The translations under genes were made by a program, and so were the position numbers. From the UHGV virus genome UHGV-0224961: a DNA stretch of 39,860 nt; one strand, 5' to 3'. Numbering within the stretch: position 1 is the stretch's first letter; every line of letters begins with the position of its first letter. The DNA is from a virus. Shown here piece after piece: positions 12,494-39,733 of this stretch. Below the pieces are notes generated by a model that was not told the origin of the DNA, searched no databases, and saw only the letters and a program-made list of their open reading frames with translations.

Positions 12494-12843
12494 TGGACTA
12501 TTCACAGTTAAGTGATTTTGAAATTAACAGAATGGTAGGAGACATAATTTTTAAAGGCCTTTGGGCGTGTAAACCGGAAACATCAGGGAATAACACCAAC
12601 AAATGGTATTACGGAAATACTGATACAACTTTTGAGCCATTAAACCCTTTACCTGACTACTGCAATAATCCATCGGATGCATGGCCTATTATTGTTGATA
12701 ATAAAATCAGTCTAACCTGCCACCAATCTCGCGGTGAGTGGTCAGCTGTTTTTAATACCGAGAATATTTGCTTTCATGCGAATAATCCACTCCGAGCCGC
12801 CATGATTGTATTTCTCATGATGCAGGAAAATCAGAATGGCTAA
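12490..12843 (+). CDS. NinX-like (DUF2591-like) protein
   Basis: N-terminus MDYSQLSDFEINRMV resembles NinX family proteins as recalled. Confidence 0.4.
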   Translation: MMDYSQLSDFEINRMVGDIIFKGLWACKPETSGNNTNKWYYGNTDTTFEPLNPLPDYCNNPSDAWPIIVDNKISLTCHQSRGEWSAVFNTENICFHANNPLRAAMIVFLMMQENQNG

Positions 12844-13174
12844 ATCAGCAGCAGAGCGCAAAGCCGCTCAGAGAGCCAGACAAGCTGCATCTGGTGTGCG
12901 TAAGCTGGAAATTGTGCTTGATGCTCAGGAAATTGAAATGCTGGAGCGTAACTGTGCCACGCGTCGCCCCGGGCGTGCGCCTTACGAATTTGGTGAGTAT
13001 ATAGCGTTACTGATCCGCCAGGATGATGCACGCGTGCGCGGGCGTATAAAATCGATCAGCAGAAAATGTTGCGGTAAGTGCGGCGAGAGAGTTCCAGTTA
13101 ATTCATGCCCGTGTAATGGTGACTCGCAATGCTGGATGACTAAAGGCTGGCATGAAACGAAATTAATAGTGTGA
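12836..13174 (+). CDS. Hypothetical protein with C-terminal Cys cluster; candidate regulator
   Basis: 112 aa; basic N-terminus; C-terminal CCGKCG...CPC...C; stop codon lies inside the GTGACATGTCAC palindrome. Confidence 0.5.
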   Translation: MAKSAAERKAAQRARQAASGVRKLEIVLDAQEIEMLERNCATRRPGRAPYEFGEYIALLIRQDDARVRGRIKSISRKCCGKCGERVPVNSCPCNGDSQCWMTKGWHETKLIV

Positions 13175-13182
13175 CATGTCAC
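13171..13182. promoter_or_regulatory. Perfect 12-bp palindrome GTGACATGTCAC at an operon end
   Basis: Same palindrome at 32649-32660 and a variant at 15436-15447. Confidence 0.45.
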
Positions 13183-15411: not shown

Positions 15412-15447
15412 AGCCAGCTTATCGGCTGGCTGTTTGTGACGTGTCAC
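15412..15447 (+). terminator. Hairpin (agccagc/gctggct) followed by palindrome GTGACGTGTCAC downstream of TerL
   Basis: Weak T-run; may act as a partial terminator or protein-binding site. Confidence 0.3.
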
Positions 15448-15677: not shown

Positions 15678-15754
15678 TGGCGTGGCATGCAGGATTCGAA
15701 CCTGCGACCAACCGCTTAGAAGGCGGTTGCTCTGTCCAACTGAGCTAATGCCAC
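15678..15754 (-). tRNA. tRNA-Arg (anticodon UCU), phage-encoded
   Basis: Reverse complement folds as a canonical 77-nt cloverleaf: acceptor GTGGCAT/ATGCCAC, D-stem GCTC/GAGC, anticodon stem ACCGC/GCGGT, loop CTTCTAA, T-stem GCAGG/CCTGC, TTCGAAT loop, discriminator G, CCA encoded. Confidence 0.85.
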
Positions 15755-27881: not shown

Positions 27882-29680
27882 GTTACTTTGGCCTTAATCC
27901 AGTAAACCAGAATCAGCAGCTTGACGAAGCAGCATCAAATCCAGCTGGCTTTAACAGCGATGTTGGTTTTTTCGACAATGCTGTAGGAGCGGCATTGTCT
28001 GGTTTGTACTCAGGGCTGGTGGCAAAGCCAGATCAGTTGCTATGGGCAGGGATGGATAAAATCGTATCCCCGATTGCTCAGTTTGTTAACGAAAACACCT
28101 CGCTCAATGATACTTCAGTTTCATACATTGCCGAGCAGAGAAAACTAGCAGAGCAGCAGGTTAAGCGGCTGACGCCTGATGCCGCGACAACTGGAACCGC
28201 TGGGCAGGTTCTTTATGGGTTGTTCGATATGGGCGGGCAGGCTGTTGTCGGTACAACGCTCGGTGGTTCTGTCGGAGGTGCAGCAGCGGTAACTTCGCTA
28301 CAGGGTTTTTCTGAGTTTGAACGGCTGACAGCACAGGGTGTTGATTTCAGGACGGCGCAGGAAGCGGGATTAGTGCAGGGCATTACTGCTGGTGCCGGAA
28401 CGCTGATCCCTATGAGCCTCGGGTTACGTGCTGGTGGTGCGCTGGCGGAAGGTGTGGCGGCTCAGCTTGCGCGGACGGGTGAGAGTTCAGTGCGACGCGC
28501 CGCAGCAACAGCAGTACGTGCAACGCCAGATATTGCCTATGCCGCAGGTACAAATATTGCGTTCGGTATGGCACAGCGTGGGCTTACTGCAAAAACACTT
28601 CGTGATGGTGGCTATAGCGAAATGGCTAACCAGTATGATGTGTTGGATCGACAGGCAATTGCTATTGATGCTGTTCTTGGGGTGGCGTTTGGTGGTGTCG
28701 GCAGATTTATTAACTCTCGCGGCGAGTCTACAAACGCACCAAATTTTTCACCAGTTGATATCGATGCTGCACTGGCGGCGAATGCCGCTCATCATGCTGA
28801 AATTGATATTGCGCCCGGCGTGCCGATCAACGTGCTTTCGCGCAATTCTCACATTCAGGCTCTGCGAAAAGCTATGTCTGATGTTAGCCAGGGGAGACCT
28901 GTAGACGTTGCCAGCATTGTTGAGTCTGCATCTTTCAGTGAAATTCCTTGGCGCAAGAGTCTGCTGTCTCAGGCAGTTAATGAGGCTCTGTCATCTGTAG
29001 ATGATGGAGTAACGGCGCGCGCTATAGAAAATCGGTTGCTTGAAGAACAGGCCGCGCAGCTTTTGCCGCGTGGAGATAGACAGGTTTACCAGTCTGAAAT
29101 CGCTAATAGCCAACGAATTATTGAAAATCTCACTGAACAGCGTGCACAAATTCTTGCAGAAGAGCCAACCGGTAGCGGTAAAGCTTTGTCTCGTGCTCGA
29201 TCAGATAAACAGGCCAGACTTCGCGATATTGATCAACGAATCCGGCAGGCACAAGAACGCCTGGAATTTTCCCGTAACGCGTTGGCACCGCACGAGCCTG
29301 GCGGTCAGTTTTTTGAAGCTCGAGCAGAACTGGCTCGGAGACAGCAGGCAGAAAGTGAACTTAATGCTCAGGCTGTTTCATTCTATAAAACAGCAGAGGT
29401 CAGGACGCCAGACGAAGTAGCTCCTTTTGAGCCTGATAAAATATTGCAACAGGCAGAACAAAAAATGATGTCAGATCAGGCAGGAGATATTGATCTGCGC
29501 ATAGCTGAAGACTCGCTGCTTGAATCACCTGACATGATAATCACCGTGCTGGATGATGATGGTAATCCACAATCGCGCAGTGCGCGTGAAGTACTGGATG
29601 AAGCGAACAGGGAAAGTGAGCAGGTAATACAGGATTCCAGCCTGTTTGATGTTGCTGTGGCGTGTTTCTTGAGAGGTTAA
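27878..29680 (+). CDS. Internal core / ejection protein
   Basis: 600 aa; Ala/Gly-rich N-terminal half. Confidence 0.55.
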   Translation: MSYFGLNPVNQNQQLDEAASNPAGFNSDVGFFDNAVGAALSGLYSGLVAKPDQLLWAGMDKIVSPIAQFVNENTSLNDTSVSYIAEQRKLAEQQVKRLTPDAATTGTAGQVLYGLFDMGGQAVVGTTLGGSVGGAAAVTSLQGFSEFERLTAQGVDFRTAQEAGLVQGITAGAGTLIPMSLGLRAGGALAEGVAAQLARTGESSVRRAAATAVRATPDIAYAAGTNIAFGMAQRGLTAKTLRDGGYSEMANQYDVLDRQAIAIDAVLGVAFGGVGRFINSRGESTNAPNFSPVDIDAALAANAAHHAEIDIAPGVPINVLSRNSHIQALRKAMSDVSQGRPVDVASIVESASFSEIPWRKSLLSQAVNEALSSVDDGVTARAIENRLLEEQAAQLLPRGDRQVYQSEIANSQRIIENLTEQRAQILAEEPTGSGKALSRARSDKQARLRDIDQRIRQAQERLEFSRNALAPHEPGGQFFEARAELARRQQAESELNAQAVSFYKTAEVRTPDEVAPFEPDKILQQAEQKMMSDQAGDIDLRIAEDSLLESPDMIITVLDDDGNPQSRSAREVLDEANRESEQVIQDSSLFDVAVACFLRG

Positions 29681-29685
29681 ATTAA

Positions 29686-32160
29686 ATGAGACAGGAATGT
29701 ATACAAGCGGTCCAGCAGGCGGCGCAGCGCACGTTAACGGCGCGAGAAATACAGAACATTGAAGACCGCATTTATCGAAATATGCGCTCCATTGCTCGTG
29801 ATGACCCGATGTCGTGGCGACAACTTTCCGAATCAGAACGGTTGTATCGTGCAGCACAATTGGCATCTGAAGAATTACAGCGAGAAGCGGCATTAAAGAA
29901 ACGTCGTGTGGCCCTCACTATAGCCGCACGTCAGAGATTGGATAAATTTATCAATAGCTATCAAGGGGCTGATGGGAAACTTGGCGCTCTTAACCGTACT
30001 ATTGCTTTTAATGCAGACGGTAAATCGAATTTCCTCTCTGTTGAATCCAGAACAAAAGCCACCCGTGATTATGCATTGAGTCAATTGCAGGAGGCATTCG
30101 AAGCAGTTGATCCTCGCTTTTTTGGTCTGTTTGAAGATGAAGCGGGCGTACGTGACCTGGTATATGAAATGCGGGGGCAAAATACTGGCAATGCTAAAGC
30201 AAGAAAAGGTGCTAAGGCGTGGAGAGAAGTTACAGAGCTGCTGCGCCGCAGGTTTAATGATGCTGGTGGGGACATTGGCTATCTCGAAAACTGGGGGATC
30301 CCTCAACATCATTCTATGGAAAAGGTTGGGGCGGTATCAAAAGATAAATGGGTTAGCGATGTTATAGGTAAGCTGGATCGCAAATATTATACCCGAGCCG
30401 ATGGACAACTGATGAACGATGCCGAGTTGTCTGCATTTCTTGGAGAGGCTTATAACACGATCGCTACTGGTGGGCTGAATAAGCTTACTGATACCGGAAT
30501 GCGAATTTCCGGCGCACGTGCTAACCGTGGTAATGCATCACGACAGATACATTTCAAAGATGCAGATTCCTATCTGCAATATCAGCAACTTTATGGCGAT
30601 CGCTCTCTATGGGAAATCATGGTCGGTCACCTTGAAGGTATCAGTAAAGATATTGCACTGGTGGAAACATATGGCCCAAACCCCGATCATGTTTTCCGCT
30701 CTCTTCTTGATCAGGTGAAGGCAGAAACGGCAACAGCTAACCCGAGTAAAACCGGTAAAGTCGAGCGGCTGGCGAACAACACAGAGAATCTGTACAACTT
30801 TATTTCCGGAAAGACACAGCCTGTAGCGAATCCGCACATCGCGCGATGGTCTGACAATATCCGCAACTGGCTGGTTGCCAGCAGACTCGGATCCGCGTTG
30901 CTGTCATCGTTCTCTGATCTTGGAACCATGTATCTGTCTGCGAAGGTTACCAACCTTCCAATGAACCAGTTATTCCGCAACCAGCTTGAAGCTATGGACC
31001 CAACGAACCGTACAGAACTTGCGCGGGCGCGCCGCGCTGGTCTGGCGATGGAATCTCTACTTGGCAGCGTTAACCGCTGGGCGATGGATAATATGGGGCC
31101 GTCTGTGTCTCGTTGGGCTGCAACGGCGGTAATGCGTGCCAGTGGGCTTACAGCATGGTCAGATGCGCACAAGCGCGCCTATGGCGTAACCATGATGGGA
31201 AGCCTGGGAGAAGTAGTGTCACGGACACCAGACCTTCGTAGCCTCGATGATTCTGATTTTCGTATCCTGAAAAGCAAAGGGATTACTGACACAGACTGGA
31301 GCGTATGGAAGCTGGCGCAACAGGAGGACTGGGGGAACGGCAATAATACGATGCTGACACCGGAAAGCATTATGCGTATCCCTGATTCAGCAGTTAAACA
31401 TCTTGGTGAGCCTGAACGCGTGAAATTTGAGGCAATGCGTAAACTGCTCGGTGCCGTAACTGAAGAAGTTGATATGGCTGTTATTACACCGGGAGCACGT
31501 GAGCAACTGATAACCGGTTCTGGTATTCAGCGTGGAACATGGAAAGGTGAATTAACGAGAAGTGTTTTCCTGTTTAAATCGTTCCCTATCTCGGTGGTTA
31601 TGCGTCACTGGTCACGCGCTATGGGTATGCCGTCTGCTGGTGGGCGTGCGGCATATATTGCGACGTTTATTGCCAGTACGACCATTCTTGGCGCTTTGTC
31701 GCAGCAACTTAACGACCTTGCGTCTGGTCGTAATCCTCGCGAGATGACAGGAGAAGATGCTGCTAAATTTTGGCTTGGTGCTCTACTGAAAGGTGGTGGT
31801 CTTGGCCTTTACGGTGACTTTTTATTGTCAGATCACACTAGGTACGGAAGCGGCGCGCTGGCGTCGATGCTTGGCCCGGTAGCTGGTCTGGTTGATGACG
31901 TAGTGAAGATTGCTCAGGGCATACCGTTAAATGCTGTGGAAGGGAAGAGTGAGCAGACTGGTGGTGATCTGGTGAAGCTGGGGAAAGGTTTGATGCCAGG
32001 TGCGAATCTCTGGTACTTAAAGGCGGCTCTCGATCATATGATCTTTAACCAGATGCAGGAGTATTTTTCACCAGGCTATTTGCGTAAAATGGAGCAACGT
32101 TCGAAGAAAGAGTTTAACCAGACATACTGGTGGCGACCTCAGGATGTCACTCCGCAATAA
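29686..32160 (+). CDS. Internal core / ejection protein (gp16-like position)
   Basis: 824 aa; last large gene before the tailspike region. Confidence 0.55.
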   Translation: MRQECIQAVQQAAQRTLTAREIQNIEDRIYRNMRSIARDDPMSWRQLSESERLYRAAQLASEELQREAALKKRRVALTIAARQRLDKFINSYQGADGKLGALNRTIAFNADGKSNFLSVESRTKATRDYALSQLQEAFEAVDPRFFGLFEDEAGVRDLVYEMRGQNTGNAKARKGAKAWREVTELLRRRFNDAGGDIGYLENWGIPQHHSMEKVGAVSKDKWVSDVIGKLDRKYYTRADGQLMNDAELSAFLGEAYNTIATGGLNKLTDTGMRISGARANRGNASRQIHFKDADSYLQYQQLYGDRSLWEIMVGHLEGISKDIALVETYGPNPDHVFRSLLDQVKAETATANPSKTGKVERLANNTENLYNFISGKTQPVANPHIARWSDNIRNWLVASRLGSALLSSFSDLGTMYLSAKVTNLPMNQLFRNQLEAMDPTNRTELARARRAGLAMESLLGSVNRWAMDNMGPSVSRWAATAVMRASGLTAWSDAHKRAYGVTMMGSLGEVVSRTPDLRSLDDSDFRILKSKGITDTDWSVWKLAQQEDWGNGNNTMLTPESIMRIPDSAVKHLGEPERVKFEAMRKLLGAVTEEVDMAVITPGAREQLITGSGIQRGTWKGELTRSVFLFKSFPISVVMRHWSRAMGMPSAGGRAAYIATFIASTTILGALSQQLNDLASGRNPREMTGEDAAKFWLGALLKGGGLGLYGDFLLSDHTRYGSGALASMLGPVAGLVDDVVKIAQGIPLNAVEGKSEQTGGDLVKLGKGLMPGANLWYLKAALDHMIFNQMQEYFSPGYLRKMEQRSKKEFNQTYWWRPQDVTPQ

Positions 32161-32169
32161 GGAAGTGTT

Positions 32170-32343
32170 GTGTTTTTAATTATTTTGAGTGTGATAATTT
32201 CTGGTGGGTTGTTATTTATTGACCGCTACAAATATTTTCTTAACCCTCAGACTCAAGCTATTTGCTGGTTCATCTTTGTTGTGCAGGGAATAGTTCTTGT
32301 TGCAAGCCTTATTGAGGGGAGGCCTCTGATTTTTACTGGGTAA
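32170..32343 (+). CDS. Small hydrophobic protein (57 aa; GTG start)
   Basis: Hand-translated VFLIILSVIISGGLLFIDRYKYFLNPQTQAICWFIFVVQGIVLVASLIEGRPLIFTG; GGAAG RBS; below the ORF-track cutoff. Confidence 0.3.
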   Translation: MFLIILSVIISGGLLFIDRYKYFLNPQTQAICWFIFVVQGIVLVASLIEGRPLIFTG

Positions 32344-32355
32344 ATAGGTGACTAC

Positions 32356-32652
32356 ATGCAAGCTATAGGATTCATTGTTTATATCGTCGTTGGTCTTTTT
32401 CAGTTGGCAGCAATTATGGCTGGGCTTGAATCATGGTGGGGATTGCACTGGATAATTGCAGCCCCCATTGCTTTCATCGTGAGCTATATTCCATTTGTTG
32501 GAGCGATTGTTGGTATGGTTGGCGCTGTGGATGTATGGCGGTGGGAGTGGTGGCAGGCTGGCCTTCTCTTCTTTGGTGGGATCATCTTTGCTATTGTCTG
32601 CGGTGGAATGTCATCATTTTTCGAATGGCTATCATTCAGAAAAAGAGCGTGA
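32356..32652 (+). CDS. Small integral membrane protein (about 3 TM segments)
   Basis: 98 aa, very hydrophobic; stop codon lies inside GTGACATGTCAC. Confidence 0.5.
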   Translation: MQAIGFIVYIVVGLFQLAAIMAGLESWWGLHWIIAAPIAFIVSYIPFVGAIVGMVGAVDVWRWEWWQAGLLFFGGIIFAIVCGGMSSFFEWLSFRKRA

Positions 32653-32660
32653 CATGTCAC
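32649..32660. promoter_or_regulatory. Perfect 12-bp palindrome GTGACATGTCAC
   Basis: Identical to 13171-13182; followed by the hairpin at 32661-32678. Confidence 0.45.
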
Positions 32661-32686
32661 AGGCCGCTCTTGCGGCCTTTAAATTT
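32661..32686. terminator. Terminator-like hairpin aggccgc-tctt-gcggcct between convergent genes
   Basis: 7-bp stem followed by ttaaattt. Confidence 0.5.
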
Positions 32687-32942
32687 ACCGGGTTTGTTTT
32701 CGTAATTGTTCGGCACAATAGTCGAGATGTGTTTGCAGATCCCGCATAGACATCTGTGAGCTGGTGACGTAGTTAATCAGTGCAGTCAGTTCGGCAAGTG
32801 GGCCATCGACATTAAATCCATCCTTATCGAGATCCCGGAGTAATTTCATCAAGTGCGATCCCTCCACCAGTGACCTGACGCCTCCCGGCGTGTGAATCCT
32901 TTCGGTAAATCCGTCTTCCAGTGGATAGTGATACTGCTGCAT
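32685..32942 (-). CDS. Small protein (85 aa) behind a LexA box; candidate SOS-inducible antirepressor
   Basis: Start ATG 32942 with GGAGAAG RBS; LexA box 22-37 nt upstream; an alternative start at 33008 would place the box inside the coding sequence. Confidence 0.5.
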   Translation of the reverse strand: MQQYHYPLEDGFTERIHTPGGVRSLVEGSHLMKLLRDLDKDGFNVDGPLAELTALINYVTSSQMSMRDLQTHLDYCAEQLRKQTR

Positions 32943-33137: not shown

Positions 33138-36113
33138 ATGACGGTCTCAACCGAAGTTGACCACAACGAATACACAGGTAACGGCGTTACGACATCATTT
33201 CCGTATACCTTTAGGGTTTTCAAGGAATCTGATCTGGCAGTACAGGTGGTTGACCTTGACGAAAATATCGCTGTGCTGGCTCTTGATACTGATTACACTG
33301 TCACTGGGGCTGGTGGATATAATGGCGGTAATGTAATTCTGTCGAAGGCGTTAGCTAACGGTTATCAGATTTCTATATCACGAGAGCTACCGGTTACGCA
33401 GGAAACTGATCTGCGAAATCAGGGAAAGTTTTTCGCTGAGGTGCATGAAGACGCGTTAGATAAGCTGACGATGCTGATACAGCAAGTCCGCAGTTGGTTT
33501 AGCCTGGCGCTGCGCAAACCATCATTTGTGGCAAACTATTACGATGCTTTGAATAATTACATCCGTAATTTGCGCGATCCTTCCAAGCCTCAAGATGCAG
33601 CTACAAAGAATTATGTTGATAATATTGTTAATGTGAATATTAACAGGACATTACGGGTTCCAGATAATTTTATTGAACCACTTCCTCCAGTTCATTTACT
33701 GGAAGAAACTGTCATTGGTATCGTCAATGGTAAACCTATAGGTGTACCTGTGCCTTCTGGCAGTGCCGCAGATGTTCTTCTGCAATTATCTAGCGCAGGA
33801 GAAGGAAAAGGTGATGCATTAATTGGTGTAAGGCAGCCATTTGCCGGGGCTGTAACTATAACTCAGCATGAAAACAATGCTCTTTTCTTAAATGTAAAAC
33901 AATTCGGAGCAATTGGGGATGGGAAATATCATCCATTATCTGAGAGGTTTTCTTCAATTTCTGAAGCAAAATCCTTATATCCTTTTGTTGACTCATTATC
34001 TCAGTCAATAGACTGGGCCGCGTGGCAAGCTGCCATTAACACAGGAAAGGTTATTTATGGTACTGATAATGCGTATGTAATAACGGATACGTTAACACCT
34101 GTTTCTGGTGGTGGGATAATTGGTCTTGGTGTGGGCAAATGGGTCTCTGGATATACTGCAACATTTGCTCCTGATATTACCACAGGGACCACATTCCTGA
34201 TGTACGGTGTAGGAAATAAAAAATATACTGTAGATTGTGTTTCTAATATGGATGTTAGTGGTGGTGTGGTTTCTAATCCATCTTCCGAAGACCCGTATAC
34301 AACAACGGCACCTGCGTCATCATATGATTTATTGGATTTTACTAACGGTGATGCTAATGGGGCTACAAGAGCCACGCTTAAACCATTCTCTGCCGCAATA
34401 TTGATGCCAGAGACAGGATGTGTTCGCCTTGAGAACTTTCGTATTGTTCCATATTTCAATGGGCTGGATGGTTATAAAGACATTGCAAATACCGGTCTTG
34501 GCGATGAGTGGGATGTAGGTATTTGGTCACGTGCGTCTTTTGGCAATGAATACCGCAATTTGCAGGTGGTTGGATACTGGCGCAAGACGGCACTTTTAAA
34601 AACGAACATTCCTGTATCTGGCACGCTGGCCGCTCAGGGCGAGGATGAAAACTATTATCACTGTAGATTCCAGGGATTCAAGGGTGTTTCGATCCGCGCC
34701 CATGATGTATTCCGAATTACAGCGGTAACGTCCAGCACTATCGAAATCCCATGGTCATCAAGCCACACCTTCGAAACGTCCGGGGTTTTAAGATCGGGAG
34801 GCAGGAATTTCACTTATTCAGGATTATCCGTATCCGGTGATAAGTTAGTATTTACTGGAGTGTCTAACGCTTCTGAGGCAACAGTAGGTTCTACTATACG
34901 GCGAAATGACATAGATAACTTTGGTATGGCGGGAACGCAATTTTTCGATTGCTACATTACCAGCCTGTATCACCACACACATCTGCTTGCCACATCGCAA
35001 TACCTGTCTCAGCCATTCAGCCGGCCATCAGAGTGTATGGAGGTTTCAGGGGAACCAGTTCGCGGTGTACAGGTACATGCGGGAACCATTCAGGGATGGG
35101 ATGATGTTCTTATTCATCTGCATGACTGTGGAAATATGAACTTTTACAGTACATATTTCGAAAGCCAGCAAGCATATGTAACTATAAATGGTGGTAATGC
35201 TATTGGTTATGGAGCACGTATGATAGCTTCCCGGCAATCAACAAGCTCATTACCATATGCAGCAGGGAATACTCGAGTGCTTAGAATGGTCGGGTGCTCT
35301 GAAGGCAATGGCGTTGACTGGGGTCCTGTATTTAACAACTATACAGGAGGAAGATATAATTCTGGAGACGGTGTATTTAACCCCCGCGATGCATTTATAG
35401 ACCATAAATCTCTTCCTGAGCAGTCAGGAGGTGAGTCAAGACTCGTATCACAAAAAGGAAATGCCAGAGTAGTATGTGGTGTTGGTAAAACTGTACTGCT
35501 TGGACCAACGTCAGGAGATTGTAATTTACAGAGCAATACTGGAAGTTTAAATATTAGAAGTGGGATAAGAGTAAGAATCGGTCACGCTGATGGAACAGAC
35601 TGGTGGTTGGCAGATGCTAATAAAATAGCTCCTGTTGATGATAATGTTAAAGCTATTGGACAGCCATCAAACAGATGCTCTGTTATCTATGCAGGAACCG
35701 GGTCAATCAATACGTCAGATGAAACTCTTAAAACAAGATATGATATTCTTAATGCAGAGCGTAATGCCGCTATTGAAATAAAGTCAGTCATCTATAAATT
35801 TAAATTTAATGACTCAATTAATCACAAAGGAATTGAGTCGTCCAGGTATCATTTTGGCGTTGGCGCTCAAACCGTAGGGGATATTCTTAGAAAGCATGGT
35901 TTAAACCCTGAGCAATATGCTTTTTGGTGTTACGATGAATGGCCTGACGTATGGGATGAAGAGGTGATAACTGAAGAGAGCACAGATCCTGATACAGGTG
36001 AGAAAATTTATTCTCAATATAAAACAGGAGATATGATTCTTGTAAAAAAAGCAGGAGGACGCTACGGAATTCGTTATGACGAATTAGCCATGTTTATATT
36101 AATGTCAATGTAA
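33138..36113 (+). CDS. Tailspike with C-terminal intramolecular chaperone-like domain
   Basis: 991 aa; central region likely beta-helix (FGAIGDGKYHP); C-terminal region resembles S74-type self-cleaving chaperone domains of tail fibres as recalled; AT-rich from about 33500 onward. Confidence 0.8.
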   Translation: MTVSTEVDHNEYTGNGVTTSFPYTFRVFKESDLAVQVVDLDENIAVLALDTDYTVTGAGGYNGGNVILSKALANGYQISISRELPVTQETDLRNQGKFFAEVHEDALDKLTMLIQQVRSWFSLALRKPSFVANYYDALNNYIRNLRDPSKPQDAATKNYVDNIVNVNINRTLRVPDNFIEPLPPVHLLEETVIGIVNGKPIGVPVPSGSAADVLLQLSSAGEGKGDALIGVRQPFAGAVTITQHENNALFLNVKQFGAIGDGKYHPLSERFSSISEAKSLYPFVDSLSQSIDWAAWQAAINTGKVIYGTDNAYVITDTLTPVSGGGIIGLGVGKWVSGYTATFAPDITTGTTFLMYGVGNKKYTVDCVSNMDVSGGVVSNPSSEDPYTTTAPASSYDLLDFTNGDANGATRATLKPFSAAILMPETGCVRLENFRIVPYFNGLDGYKDIANTGLGDEWDVGIWSRASFGNEYRNLQVVGYWRKTALLKTNIPVSGTLAAQGEDENYYHCRFQGFKGVSIRAHDVFRITAVTSSTIEIPWSSSHTFETSGVLRSGGRNFTYSGLSVSGDKLVFTGVSNASEATVGSTIRRNDIDNFGMAGTQFFDCYITSLYHHTHLLATSQYLSQPFSRPSECMEVSGEPVRGVQVHAGTIQGWDDVLIHLHDCGNMNFYSTYFESQQAYVTINGGNAIGYGARMIASRQSTSSLPYAAGNTRVLRMVGCSEGNGVDWGPVFNNYTGGRYNSGDGVFNPRDAFIDHKSLPEQSGGESRLVSQKGNARVVCGVGKTVLLGPTSGDCNLQSNTGSLNIRSGIRVRIGHADGTDWWLADANKIAPVDDNVKAIGQPSNRCSVIYAGTGSINTSDETLKTRYDILNAERNAAIEIKSVIYKFKFNDSINHKGIESSRYHFGVGAQTVGDILRKHGLNPEQYAFWCYDEWPDVWDEEVITEESTDPDTGEKIYSQYKTGDMILVKKAGGRYGIRYDELAMFILMSM

Positions 36114-36123
36114 TAATAAATGC

Positions 36124-36160
36124 AATAACCCCGAATAAAACAGCGGGGTTATTGTTATTA
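36124..36160 (+). terminator. Terminator hairpin after the tailspike
   Basis: 10-bp stem aataaccccg/cggggttatt followed by T-rich sequence. Confidence 0.55.
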
Positions 36161-36519
36161 TAATAATGCTCTTAACTTCTTAAATGATATTTATATGCAC
36201 TTAGATTATTAAATCTATATTATGCCTGTTATTTATGTGTTCTGTTATATGTTTTGCAGGCACTGTTGGCAGCATTAAAGGAAATTGTATTTATGGCGAA
36301 ATAGCTGGTATCGTGTTTTTATTGTGCGTAAAAATAACAGACTGCATATATTATTGTATAAAGTTTTGGAAATGAAAACACTCAAACTTACCGCTGTGGA
36401 TATGTTTTGACCATCGCGAATTGGATTGGTAATATTGGGTAACAAAAAACCATAAATGGTTTATCATGCGTAATGCTTTACTGTTCAGGAGGTAGTTATG
36501 CATATAAACGGTGGAAAAC

Positions 36520-36924
36520 ATGTCAGCTCAACTAACCAGTGAAACTTTAAATCAGTGGCTTAGCATGAGTTCTTTGGCGGCAGTGATAGCAGGAGTTCCT
36601 CCTGAGGTTGCTTTGGGGTCTTTGGCTGGGGCGGTGATTTTTGTTACCTCTGCGGTAGAGTATCCCATTCGTCGTCGCGTGCTCTTGTCGATGCTTAGCT
36701 TTCTCTGCGGACTTCTATTCTACAAACCAGCAGCATCAATTCTTATCGGCATAGCCAGCCTGATCCCTACAATCACACAGGATTCTTTCGAGAAAGGGAT
36801 TGTTTTCTCTGCCGGTGCATTTGTGTCAGCAATCGTCGCTGTGCGAATTGGGATCTGGCTCTATCACCGTTCCGATAATCCACGCGAGTTAATTCCGGGG
36901 AGAAAAGACGATGGTAACTCATGA
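36520..36924 (+). CDS. Holin-like membrane protein
   Basis: Multiple TM segments; first gene of the lysis cassette; start ambiguous between GTG 36511 and ATG 36520. Confidence 0.5.
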   Translation: MSAQLTSETLNQWLSMSSLAAVIAGVPPEVALGSLAGAVIFVTSAVEYPIRRRVLLSMLSFLCGLLFYKPAASILIGIASLIPTITQDSFEKGIVFSAGAFVSAIVAVRIGIWLYHRSDNPRELIPGRKDDGNS

Positions 36925-37219
36925 GCTTTTTTTGCTTATCACCAATGCGGTTATTTGCGCCGGTATAGCAGTTCGAGTTGCCACATTTCGGAGAAACGGT
37001 TCTCAACACAGGCGATGGGGTGGGTGGCTTGCTTATTTCCTGATTGTTGCTGCGGCCAGCATTCCAGTTCGTGTCGCTTATGCAATCTGGTTACGCACGC
37101 CAATGGTTGTGGATTTATCTGAGGTCATTATCAACGCTGTCATGCTTGCTGCAGTCATTAAAACGCGCGGTAACGTAGTTCAGATTTTCAAAATAACGAG
37201 GTCTAAACATGGAGATTAA
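36911..37219 (+). CDS. Holin / holin-associated membrane protein
   Basis: 102 aa, about 3 TM segments, charged C-terminus; overlaps the endolysin start. Confidence 0.5.
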
Positions 37220-37838
37220 ACAATTCCAGCGAGCTGCTGGTATCAGCGAGGAACTGGCCGCTCGCTGGTTCTCGCATATAACTTCTGCGATGAAAGAGTT
37301 TGGTATCAGCAAACCAGAAGATCAGGCAATGTTTATTGCTCAGGTCGGGCATGAGTCTGGAGGCTTCACCCGGTTGCAGGAAAATTTCAACTACAGCGTA
37401 ACCGGATTGGCTAACTTCGTTCGGGCTGGGCGTCTCACTCAGGGGCAGGCTAATGCACTTGGTCGCCGTGCTGGTGAACCACCATTGCCACTCGAGCGCC
37501 AGCGCGCGATCGCAAATCTGGTGTACAGCAAACGCATGGGGAACAATGCCCCTGGTGATGGCTGGAATTACCGTGGGCGCGGGCTTATCCAGATTACCGG
37601 TTTGAATAACTATCGTGACTGTGGAAACGGTCTGAAAGTTGACCTGCTGGAGAATCCTGAACTGTTGGCGCAGGACGAATACGCGGCTCGTAGCGCGGCG
37701 TGGTTCTTCTCCAGCAAAGGTTGCATGAAGTATACCGGAGATATTGCACGTGTAACTCTGCTTATCAATGGTGGCCGGAACGGCATTGATGACCGGCGCG
37801 CGCGATACATCACTGCCAGTAAGGTGCTGGCGGTATGA
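37209..37838 (+). CDS. Endolysin, glycoside hydrolase family 19-like
   Basis: 209 aa; [12 protein letters not shown] and GRGLIQITG motifs typical of GH19 phage endolysins. Confidence 0.85.
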
Positions 37839-38317
37839 TCTGGGCATTCGCAAAAGCATACTGGAAACAGTTGGTTATCATGGCGATGCTTGCTGTTCTG
37901 GTCATATCAGGAGTTGTAGCCTGGAATGCACACGGCAGTCGTCAGTACGATGCCGGGTATGCGCAGGCGAAGGAAGACCGCAAAGCTGAAGATGAGATAG
38001 TTCGTCAGCACTACGAACAGGAGAAATCGATCAATGAACGTGAAGCGCAGCAGAGGATCGACCAGGCGCGCAATGATTCTCTTGATGCTGCCGCTCGCGC
38101 TGGCCGGTTGCAGCAACAACTCTTTGCCATCCGTGAGCAGCTCAGGCAGTATAACGCCATTGTCGGCGCTGGGACGTCAGCCGCAGACACCGGAGTTTTG
38201 CTTGCCGACGTGCTCAGCAAATCTCTCGAGAGAAACAGACAACTGGCAGAGTATGCTGACCGGGCAGCCGAAGCCGGAAGAGTCTGCGAAAAACAATACG
38301 ACACCCTGACCAGATAG
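37835..38317 (+). CDS. Rz-like i-spanin
   Basis: N-terminal TM ([18 protein letters not shown]) followed by charged coiled-coil; ATGA overlap with the endolysin. Confidence 0.75.
38034..38309 (+). CDS. Rz1-like o-spanin lipoprotein embedded in Rz (+1 frame)
   Basis: Lipobox LALAGC; Pro-rich mature part; start could be 38034 or 38073. Confidence 0.6.
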   Translation: MNVKRSRGSTRRAMILLMLPLALAGCSNNSLPSVSSSGSITPLSALGRQPQTPEFCLPTCSANLSRETDNWQSMLTGQPKPEESAKNNTTP

Positions 38318-38535: not shown

Positions 38536-39075
38536 TTAGTTAAACCAGCTGTCCGATTTGTTCTCTTCTGCTTTGCCCACGCTTTTCATCAGATCGCGAC
38601 CGCCTTCAGTCATATTCCTGTTTGCGTCAGCTTCAGATTGCACCACATCGGTTTGCGCAGCTTTGTGCTTCAGTTCCTGATCGATAAATTCGTTTTCTCG
38701 CTTAACGCGGGCTTCTTCTTTCGCCAGCGCCAGTTTTTGTTTCTGAATCTCTAAGCTGCGTAGCTCATCTTCATAACTTTGATCGCGTTTCTTGTCCGCA
38801 GTGGCTTCGGCGTCCAGTTTATCCTGACGAGCTTTCTTATTCGCCGCTGCCGTTGCCGCTCTTTTATTAGCCGCGGCCTGGGCGTTTGCGCGACGTTGCT
38901 TCTCTTGCTGGATTTCCCTGTTGCGCTCCGCGACCCATTCGTCATGCTGCCTTTGCTCTTCATTTTTACCTTGCTGTTCCGCTTCTGCGACAGCAGAGAG
39001 TTGATCCTGCAATGATGAGGCGATAGCCGGATAGCTTAAGGAGGCTAAGATGGCGCAAAGAAAAACTTTCTTCAT
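38536..39075 (-). CDS. Secreted charged coiled-coil protein (probable host or cargo gene)
   Basis: Signal peptide MKKVFLCAILASLSYPAIA; Lys/Glu/Ala/Gln-rich. Confidence 0.6.
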   Translation of the reverse strand: MKKVFLCAILASLSYPAIASSLQDQLSAVAEAEQQGKNEEQRQHDEWVAERNREIQQEKQRRANAQAAANKRAATAAANKKARQDKLDAEATADKKRDQSYEDELRSLEIQKQKLALAKEEARVKRENEFIDQELKHKAAQTDVVQSEADANRNMTEGGRDLMKSVGKAEENKSDSWFN

Positions 39076-39090
39076 GACTCCTCCTGATTA

Positions 39091-39609
39091 TTAGCTCTTT
39101 TCAGGACATTTGGTATTTGGCTGAATACGCGTTTCGTTATACGTCGTGGTAATAACAACGGCTAAACCTGTCGTAAACTGGCACTCTTTACCCACCTGGG
39201 TGGAGGTATACACTTTGGTGCCTTCCTTATACGTTAGAGAAACACCTTCCACTAAGGTTTTATCATTCACCATAGAACCTGCTGCCGCGCCAACAGCTCC
39301 GCCGCCAACTGCACCTGCCGTCGTTCCGGAATTGCTGCCAGACCCCACGTTGTGGCCGATAACACCGCCAGCGACTGCACCAATAAGCGCGCCGAAGGCT
39401 TGTGCGTTTCGTTTATTTTGGGAGTTGTCTACGGCAACTTTTGCGGGAAGAATGGAAATAATATTAACGGTTTTAGTTTCTTGTTTGGTATTCAGTTGAT
39501 CGGTTTGATAAACATCGGCGGCATGATCATCAGCATTTGACTGGCATCCTGCCAGAGTGAATGACGCTAACATTGCCACAGGCAGAAGACATTTTTTAAA
39601 TTTCATCAC
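39091..39609 (-). CDS. Lipoprotein with glycine-zipper motif (YcfJ-like)
   Basis: Lipobox FTLAGC; GALIGAVAGGVIGHNVGSG glycine zipper. Confidence 0.7.
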   Translation of the reverse strand: MMKFKKCLLPVAMLASFTLAGCQSNADDHAADVYQTDQLNTKQETKTVNIISILPAKVAVDNSQNKRNAQAFGALIGAVAGGVIGHNVGSGSNSGTTAGAVGGGAVGAAAGSMVNDKTLVEGVSLTYKEGTKVYTSTQVGKECQFTTGLAVVITTTYNETRIQPNTKCPEKS

Positions 39610-39733
39610 TATTCCTTGTTATACACATTACGAAAAATAAGATATTTAAGATCATCAAAAGAGGAAAGTAAATGTATTGCGTATAAAGGAATAGATTAAA
39701 TTTATTAAAATTCATGCTGGAAATAATTTATAA

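Follow-up and report, generated by a model that had tools for sequence, protein, structure and literature searches.

What is the role of two short hydrophobic genes lying between the last internal-core gene and the tailspike gene of a temperate phage? The question is raised by UHGV virus genome UHGV-0224961, a stretch of 39,860 nucleotides (nt), the whole of which is referred to here as the window; it holds a prophage of the phiV10/epsilon15 type (Uetakevirus) within an Escherichia coli chromosome. Two open reading frames (ORFs) at 32170–32652, specifying proteins of 57 and 98 amino acids (aa), are here named ORF57 and ORF98. The original prediction had proposed them as candidates for O-antigen conversion, as mediated by small membrane proteins in epsilon15, or for superinfection exclusion, as specified at the equivalent position of phage P22. 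The computational analysis described below leaves little doubt that ORF57 and ORF98 are independent accessory genes for small membrane proteins, lodged in a recombination-prone slot that ends the late operon of phiV10-like phages. As to what their products do, exclusion at the inner membrane is tentatively favoured.

A variable slot behind the last core gene

The features that define the locus are as follows.

29686–32160, + strand: internal-core/ejection gene for an 824-aa protein (phrog_684, matched over its full length); 5′ border of the slot
32170–32343, + strand: ORF57, a predicted two-helix membrane hairpin of 57 aa; GTG start, with GGAAG 4 nt upstream
32346–32351, + strand: Shine-Dalgarno (SD) sequence of ORF98, AGGTGA; start of the conserved ORF98 module
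32356–32652, + strand: ORF98, a predicted four-helix membrane protein of 98 aa (phrog_3075); ATG start; last gene of the late operon
32649–32660: perfect 12-bp palindrome GTGACATGTCAC, overlapping the stop codon (TGA) of ORF98; conserved 3′ border of the slot
32661–32687, + strand: intrinsic terminator, made of a stem-loop (32661–32678; AGGCCGC-TCTT-GCGGCCT) and a T-run, TTTAAATTT; ends the late transcript

The 824-aa protein corresponds to phiV10 gp20 and to epsilon15 gp17, the latter being a homologue of the internal virion protein D of T7 (IVP-D/gp16) according to Hardies et al. (PMC4819975). This homology and the phrog_684 match identify its gene as the last internal-core gene, so that the two small ORFs do lie where they had been said to lie. 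Their coordinates and hydrophobicity were also borne out (both proteins are strongly hydrophobic on the Kyte-Doolittle scale), as was their separation from the lysis cassette (36511–38317), which is complete and 3.9 kb away. Around ORF57 and ORF98, phages phiV10, PAS61, HEMP4 and phiv142-3 are 97–99% identical to the window in nucleotide sequence, and region 32100–32700 has a 100% match in E. coli FT130 (NZ_CP040090).

The content of the slot, from the core-gene stop codon to the palindrome (32161–32660 in the window), was surveyed in 80 IMG/VR loci (L116–L195) chosen by the last 299 residues of the core protein (96–100% identical). As the core gene alone was used for selection, the sample is unbiased towards the small genes. 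The contents were:

ORF57 plus ORF98: 38 of 80 loci
46-aa protein of the phiV10 gp21 type, with two transmembrane (TM) segments: 25 of 80
43-aa ORF plus a 138-aa lipoprotein: 8 of 80
126-aa lipoprotein alone: 1 of 80
interval too short, or palindrome not found: 8 of 80

At least six unrelated cassettes of envelope proteins were found behind core genes that are 96–100% identical. The cargo types include ORF57, ORF98, phiV10 gp21, epsilon15 gp18, the 126/138-aa lipoprotein (phrog_3716) and membrane proteins of 92, 93 and 103 aa, a 123-aa secreted protein being a further variant. Other combinations also occur, namely ORF57 with a gene of the epsilon15 gp18 type, ORF57 with the 92-aa 2-TM protein, and ORF57 with both the 93-aa protein and ORF98. 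Every alternative occupant is an envelope protein. That such closely matching core genes (identity of 96% or more) are followed by unrelated occupants marks ORF57 and ORF98 as dispensable and swappable; each is also found without the other, so the two assort independently.

ORF57 was seen only behind core genes of the 824-aa type, often without ORF98. The distribution of ORF98 is wider: in Cronobacter prophages it stands alone, 1 nt behind an 849-aa core gene that is not homologous; a homologue 54% identical comes directly after the 833-aa last core gene of a Salmonella enterica prophage (L010–L012, 1–12285); and a copy ∼94% identical follows an 848-aa core gene whose C-terminus does not match that of the core gene in the window. 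This last case indicates that ORF98 does not change along with the core protein, and the three together that it is tied to a position and not to a particular core protein. The slot, from the core-gene stop codon to the palindrome and terminator, would be a convenient natural insertion site for reporter phages of the phiV10 type.

Transcription layout and the border palindrome

The core gene, ORF57 and ORF98 are co-directional, the GTG codon of ORF57 lying 9 nt past the core-gene stop codon and ORF98 beginning 12 nt after ORF57; each small ORF has its own SD sequence. A simple consensus scan revealed no promoter-like site on the + strand in 29600–32400, although weak or non-sigma70 promoters could escape such a scan. 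Loci were found in which ORF98 is preceded by any of four unrelated genes (ORF57, or those for the 103-aa 2-TM, 123-aa secreted and 93-aa membrane proteins). In all four settings the shared sequence starts ∼15 nt before the ATG codon of ORF98, at the SD sequence AGGTGA, and in the Uetakevirus-type loci inspected it runs on through the palindrome and the terminator. This homology boundary at about −15 indicates that the mobile unit is made up of SD sequence, gene, palindrome and terminator, with no promoter. The absence of a promoter and the position of the boundary suggest, in turn, that in this lineage ORF57 and ORF98 are the last part of the late virion operon to be transcribed. From this layout, they would be made late, together with the virion proteins, with at most leaky read-through in the lysogen. 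Terminators equivalent to that at 32661–32687 are annotated in epsilon15 and phiV10.

The mode of expression may vary across the ORF98 family, given the different placement of the gene in distant lineages. In Yersinia, a gene on the opposite strand separates the ORF98 homologue from the core genes, while in one metagenomic lineage the homologue is free-standing beside an integrase gene, with an upstream spacer of 185 bp. Such separated or stand-alone placement implies a promoter of its own in both cases.

The palindrome GTGACATGTCAC bounds the slot in all Uetakevirus-type loci, whatever small gene precedes it; the stop codons that overlap it belong to unrelated genes, and its conservation extends from epsilon15 to Cronobacter prophages. 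It is found three times in the window, at 13171–13182 (after a gp49-like regulator gene, 12836–13174, and just upstream of terS), at 15436–15447 (with one mismatch, after terL) and at 32649–32660 (after the last small membrane gene). Epsilon15 has exact copies at 39612, 2142 and 19517, that is, three copies when 0.11 would be expected; phiV10 has exact copies at 2262 and 19493, and its record ends at the third position. Each copy adjoins an intrinsic terminator that punctuates the rightward late transcript. The palindrome is unannotated in the reference records of both phages. Its placement suggests that it may be a regulator-binding site, or a site that controls whether late transcription continues into the genes for the tailspike and for lysis.

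The two proteins and their possible function

Both proteins were modelled with AlphaFold2. ORF57 is predicted to form a hairpin of two helices (residues 2–20 and 26–49; predicted local distance difference test score, pLDDT, 75.6), and ORF98 a four-helix protein (residues 2–28, 32–42, 46–59 and 65–97; pLDDT 91.7, predicted template modelling score, pTM, 0.74). Conserved in the ORF98 family are Q16, the G49xxxG53xxG56A57 and W61xW63xWWQ motifs and a basic C-terminal tail. One prophage locus (L092, 6001–6297) holds a copy of ORF98 whose codon 91 has become a stop (W91*), so that the basic tail is lost.

Both ORFs are conserved and are not chance reading frames. ORF98 matches the phrog_3075 hidden Markov model, a PHROG family without a functional label, with an expect value (E) of 2.2e-54 over residues 1–97 of 98. 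Its homologues form 52 clusters, down to 44% identity, all from Enterobacterales and none with a Pfam domain. Copies of the Klebsiella/Salmonella type differ from it by 6–13 residues at a synonymous divergence (dS) of 0.8–2, which is near saturation; the ratio of non-synonymous to synonymous substitution (dN/dS) is 0.02–0.05, compared with 0.02–0.03 for the adjacent, essential core gene. The ORF57 family is narrow (13 homologue clusters, all at least 74% identical) and under weaker constraint than ORF98 (dN/dS 0.2–0.3); the gene has a G+C content of 0.39–0.41, versus ∼0.5 in its neighbours, and is conserved in Klebsiella phage BUCT711, where it goes unannotated. Of 5426 complete E. coli genomes, 205 carry the pair, with “hypothetical protein” as the only annotation. 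Among 50,697 phage records ORF98 occurs in seven, all temperate and phiV10-like, those assigned to a genus being Uetakevirus.

Searched with a profile, 1.84 billion representative proteins revealed a much wider ORF98 family of 749 clusters, 320 of them at E ≤1e-10. In other bacteria, as proteins P0072, P0083, P0086 and P0088 illustrate, it includes tandem copies of the ORF98 domain (P0072, with four matched stretches) and fusions to DUF805 or RDD membrane domains. The fusions and the tandem copies were considered as a lead to function and rejected, all being uncharacterised membrane modules. The genomic context of distant members (Microvirga, Desulfovibrio, Thermoflexus, Buttiauxella) showed no recurrent neighbour of known function. 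ORF98 gave no Pfam match at threshold, no NCBIfam or PADLOC match, and no significant match in the Protein Data Bank (PDB; Foldseek fold and sequence profile) or in BFVD. A relationship with holins was rejected, the match to Hol44 (Phage_holin_5_2) scoring 15.2 bits against a cutoff of 29.2 and not being shared by the family. Profile comparison (hhalign) gave a probability of 0.2% for ORF98 against P22 SieA, and of at most 0.5% for either protein against epsilon15 gp22; comparisons of ORF57 with epsilon15 gp22, epsilon15 gp18 and phiV10 gp21 were all null.

By analogy with known phages, ORF57 and ORF98 could interfere with the entry of DNA from superinfecting phages, acting as exclusion proteins at the level of the envelope. 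This possibility is favoured because the slot is positionally equivalent to the sieA/immI region of P22, because its occupants (small inner-membrane proteins and lipoproteins) are of the types typically used for exclusion, and because phage growth does not require the genes, which are restricted to temperate elements. The usual exclusion effectors are indeed lipoproteins or small inner-membrane proteins, such as T5 Llp, Cor, HK97 gp15 and T4 Imm. SieA of P22 is an inner-membrane protein with three TM segments that blocks DNA injection, and mutations allowing escape from it map to the ejection proteins (PMC10883804). In the mechanism envisaged for ORF57 and ORF98, both would insert into the inner membrane, ORF98 with its basic C-terminal tail in the cytoplasm and its Trp-rich loop (residues 58–67) in the periplasm. 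The likely route would then be a disturbance of the trans-envelope channel at its inner-membrane end, or of a conserved host membrane factor required by the channel; it is unlikely that one given core protein would be recognised directly.

Several observations weigh against exclusion. The searches listed above (Pfam, NCBIfam, PADLOC, PDB, BFVD and the SieA profile) yielded no function based on homology. Prophage expression is the norm for exclusion genes, while the layout of ORF57 and ORF98 points to late expression; exclusion proteins usually evolve fast, while ORF98 is extremely conserved. The ORF98 family is wide (749 clusters), and its distant members lie in non-phage settings and are fused to other membrane domains, a distribution that suggests a generic membrane activity. 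In addition, a quantitative reverse-transcription PCR study of phiv142-3, which lists serum-induced genes only, does not name orf12, the ORF98 homologue, among them, a result that is uninformative on its basal level (PMC7724020). As the late layout, the conservation of ORF98 and the breadth of its family fit a generic membrane activity at least equally well, confidence in exclusion is low. Were ORF98 to block the entry of phage DNA, there would be consequences for host range in phage therapy and for competition between prophages, and a transcriptionally unusual family, promoter-less and placed in a late operon, would be added to the known exclusion systems.

Late expression would also suit an effector of the lytic cycle, with ORF98, possibly as an oligomer, perturbing the inner membrane or the proton-motive force late in infection and so tuning holin triggering and lysis timing (as a viroporin, an antiholin or an auxiliary holin). 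The near-invariant, glycine-zipper-like G49xxxG53xxG56A57 motif, the buried Q16 and the short paired helices 32–42 and 46–59 are in keeping with this idea, and the top fold matches, which are non-significant (E of at least 4), are to pores of K+ channels and to holins. A weak match to Pfam Hol44 (E 0.027) points the same way, but it is below threshold and was given by only one of 56 family members. The prophage also has, 4 kb away, a full set of lysis genes (two for holin-family proteins, one for an endolysin and those at the spanin position), and close relatives such as phiV10 are fully viable without ORF98. A lytic role is unlikely.

It is likewise doubtful that the genes are morons that improve the fitness of the lysogen, their low-level expression from the prophage altering envelope physiology (stress, tolerance to serum or antimicrobials, transport) and not phage entry. 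In favour of this, the ORF98 family is confined to temperate elements and bacterial chromosomes, the Yersinia and integrase-linked metagenomic copies imply a promoter of their own there, and the G+C content of ORF57 is below that of its neighbours; moreover, orf10 of phiv142-3, a neighbouring gene of the slot, has been reported to increase serum resistance (PMC7724020). Against it, no promoter-like sequence was seen in this lineage, where the module begins at −15, orf12 is not among the serum-induced genes of phiv142-3, and no member of the family has a known function.

A broader proposal, which we consider quite improbable, is that ORF98 is the phage-borne member of a family of four-helix membrane proteins, large, without a name and new in structure, that have a glycine zipper (a TM helix, a short helical hairpin and a second TM helix). 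It would serve as a generic membrane “gatekeeper”, either closing the cell late in infection to the DNA of many phage types or forming a small channel. It would represent a promoter-less, late-operon class of exclusion or viroporin-like proteins distinct from all known Sie, holin and conversion families, and the palindrome and terminator would form part of a switch that regulates read-through towards the genes for the tailspike and for lysis.

A role inside the virion is very unlikely. An assembly helper, packaged with the internal core proteins or chaperoning them and aiding formation of the inner-membrane pore in the next infection, would fit the strict synteny with the last core gene, within the same operon, in three podophage lineages, and the constraint on ORF98, which equals that on the core gene. 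However, proteins that are nearly all transmembrane would be expected to enter the membrane of the producing cell and not to be packaged, both genes are replaced by unrelated ones behind core genes at least 96% identical, and ORF98 does not co-vary with core-gene type.

As they stand, ORF57 and ORF98 are two hypothetical phage membrane proteins of a routine kind, present in ∼4% of complete E. coli genomes and in many prophages of Klebsiella, Salmonella, Citrobacter and Cronobacter. What sets the locus apart is the bounded slot for envelope proteins, the unusually constrained ORF98 family, which has no Pfam or NCBIfam entry, and the unexplained palindrome.

Gene neighbourhood and comparison with known systems

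The remaining features of the prophage and of its relatives that are mentioned below are these.

193–1443: integrase gene, the first prophage gene of the window
32685–32942, − strand: epsilon15 gp19-like gene, 85 aa from its ATG (phrog_450; phrog_1760 anti-repressor, C-terminal part)
33138–36113: tailspike gene, 991 aa, with the conserved Uetakevirus N-terminal adaptor
L005 5595–5753, L006 5586–5747, L052 6333–6485 and L013 5694–5846, − strand: copies, in relatives, of a gene for a 50–53-aa peptide

The interval between core gene and tailspike gene is an accessory region, in which relatives carry Bro-N antirepressors and toxin-antitoxin-like genes. The gp19-like gene, convergent with ORF98, is a free-standing C-terminal domain of the Bro-N antirepressors that fill this region in relatives; its ORF extends to 33008 if a GTG start is used, but the ATG at 32942 is probably the true start. 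The epsilon15 record has a repressor-binding site annotated between gp19 and the tailspike gene. In many relatives, the ORF98 terminator is immediately followed, on the opposite strand, by the gene for a secreted, Cys/Gly/Arg-rich peptide of 50–53 aa; this peptide belongs to phrog_14503, labelled moron “membrane associated protein”, and the window has no copy. The Salmonella prophage L010–L012 shows a T7-like order, with a gp14-like gene, three large core genes and genes for the small and large terminase subunits; a Bro-N gene follows its ORF98 homologue. A tRNA gene lies at 15681–15754 (− strand; Rfam RF00005, 73 bits) of the window, between terL and the portal gene.

The lysis cassette is made up of Phage_holin_8, Phage_holin_3_7, a GH19 endolysin and a DUF2514 Rz-like protein; the embedded ORF at the Rz1 position (38034–38309) gave no Pfam match and was assigned by its position and lipoprotein-like sequence. 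Presumed bacterial genes occupy the right end of the window from ∼38.5 kb on. Two genes for lipoproteins or secreted proteins (38536–39609, − strand), beyond the Rz gene, were taken as bacterial flank, and the right end of the prophage is taken to be near 38.3–38.5 kb, where these presumed flanking genes mark it. The C-terminal end of the tailspike matches the endosialidase intramolecular chaperone (Peptidase_S74) at gathering score, which suggests that the protein matures by self-cleavage.

Between the tailspike gene and the lysis cassette (36114–36510) there is an AT-rich stretch of ∼400 bp with no credible ORF and no O-antigen-modifying gene; the same interval holds oac in phiV10 and gp21/gp22 in epsilon15. 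Neither the ORF list nor the positions that oac, wzy or gtr occupy in relatives revealed an O-antigen polymerase, acetylase or gtr gene beside the tailspike, so that, judged by gene content, the usual conversion module is absent from this prophage. That absence, the O-antigen-binding tailspike, and the size and two-helix topology that ORF57 shares with epsilon15 gp22 (66 aa, 2 TM) could be taken to favour the conversion originally proposed, with ORF57 and/or ORF98, like gp22, inhibiting O-antigen polymerase or a modifying enzyme of the host. This is nevertheless the least supported explanation and a highly improbable one: there is no sequence relation to gp22 and no gene for a polymerase- or acetylase-type enzyme near ORF57/ORF98, neither the side of the tailspike nor the strand on which the genes lie is the expected one (the conversion genes of epsilon15 and phiV10 being post-tailspike, on the opposite strand and paired with a polymerase or acetylase), late-operon timing would alter the lipopolysaccharide too late, and the same cassette accompanies many different tailspikes, also in Klebsiella, Salmonella and Citrobacter, and is thus matched to no particular O-antigen chemistry.

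The closest parallel in position is P22 SieA, which, like ORF98 by prediction, is a small inner-membrane protein with several helices whose gene comes right behind the last ejection gene (gene 16 in P22), in an accessory stretch that precedes the tailspike and contains antirepressor genes. SieA is longer, however (162–164 aa versus 98 aa), with no sequence or profile similarity to ORF98, and its gene lies on the opposite strand, has an annotated promoter of its own and is expressed from the prophage, whereas ORF57 and ORF98, as read from their layout, form the promoter-less end of a late operon. SieA proteins are also extensively diverse (PMC10883804), unlike ORF98 (dN/dS ∼0.03). The analogy drawn at the outset with P22 therefore held for the accessory region resembling sieA-immI, and failed for homology, strand and promoter.

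Within the genus, epsilon15 gp18 and phiV10 gp21 occupy the same place as ORF57/ORF98, after a core gene of the IVP-D type and before the same palindrome and terminator. Both are small 2-TM proteins described as “putative integral membrane protein” (phrog_29212 and phrog_7892), unrelated in sequence to ORF57; no paper on the function of either was found in the literature. As the gp18 type co-occurs with ORF57 in locus L018, it is alternative or additive cargo and not an orthologue of ORF57. Epsilon15 gp22, an inhibitor of the O-antigen alpha-polymerase and, with gp21 and gp28, one of the serotype-conversion proteins of that phage, and phiV10 Oac resemble ORF57/ORF98 in being small or membrane proteins that act on the envelope and are encoded near the tailspike in the same genus, but epsilon15 gp21/gp22 and phiV10 oac are placed beyond the tailspike, on the opposite strand, are paired with O-antigen enzymes or are such enzymes themselves, and gp22 and Oac have no homology to ORF57/ORF98.

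A classical moron has its own promoter, and in this ORF57 and ORF98 appear to differ, with none in the consensus scan and a conserved module that starts at the SD sequence. In other respects they resemble the lambdoid morons (HK97 gp15, lambda lom and bor): they are accessory envelope genes in or at the end of a virion operon, followed by a terminator, with a G+C content below that of the neighbours in the case of ORF57, and, as the slot survey and the comparison of phiV10 with the window both show, their presence varies among near-identical phages, as is characteristic of morons.

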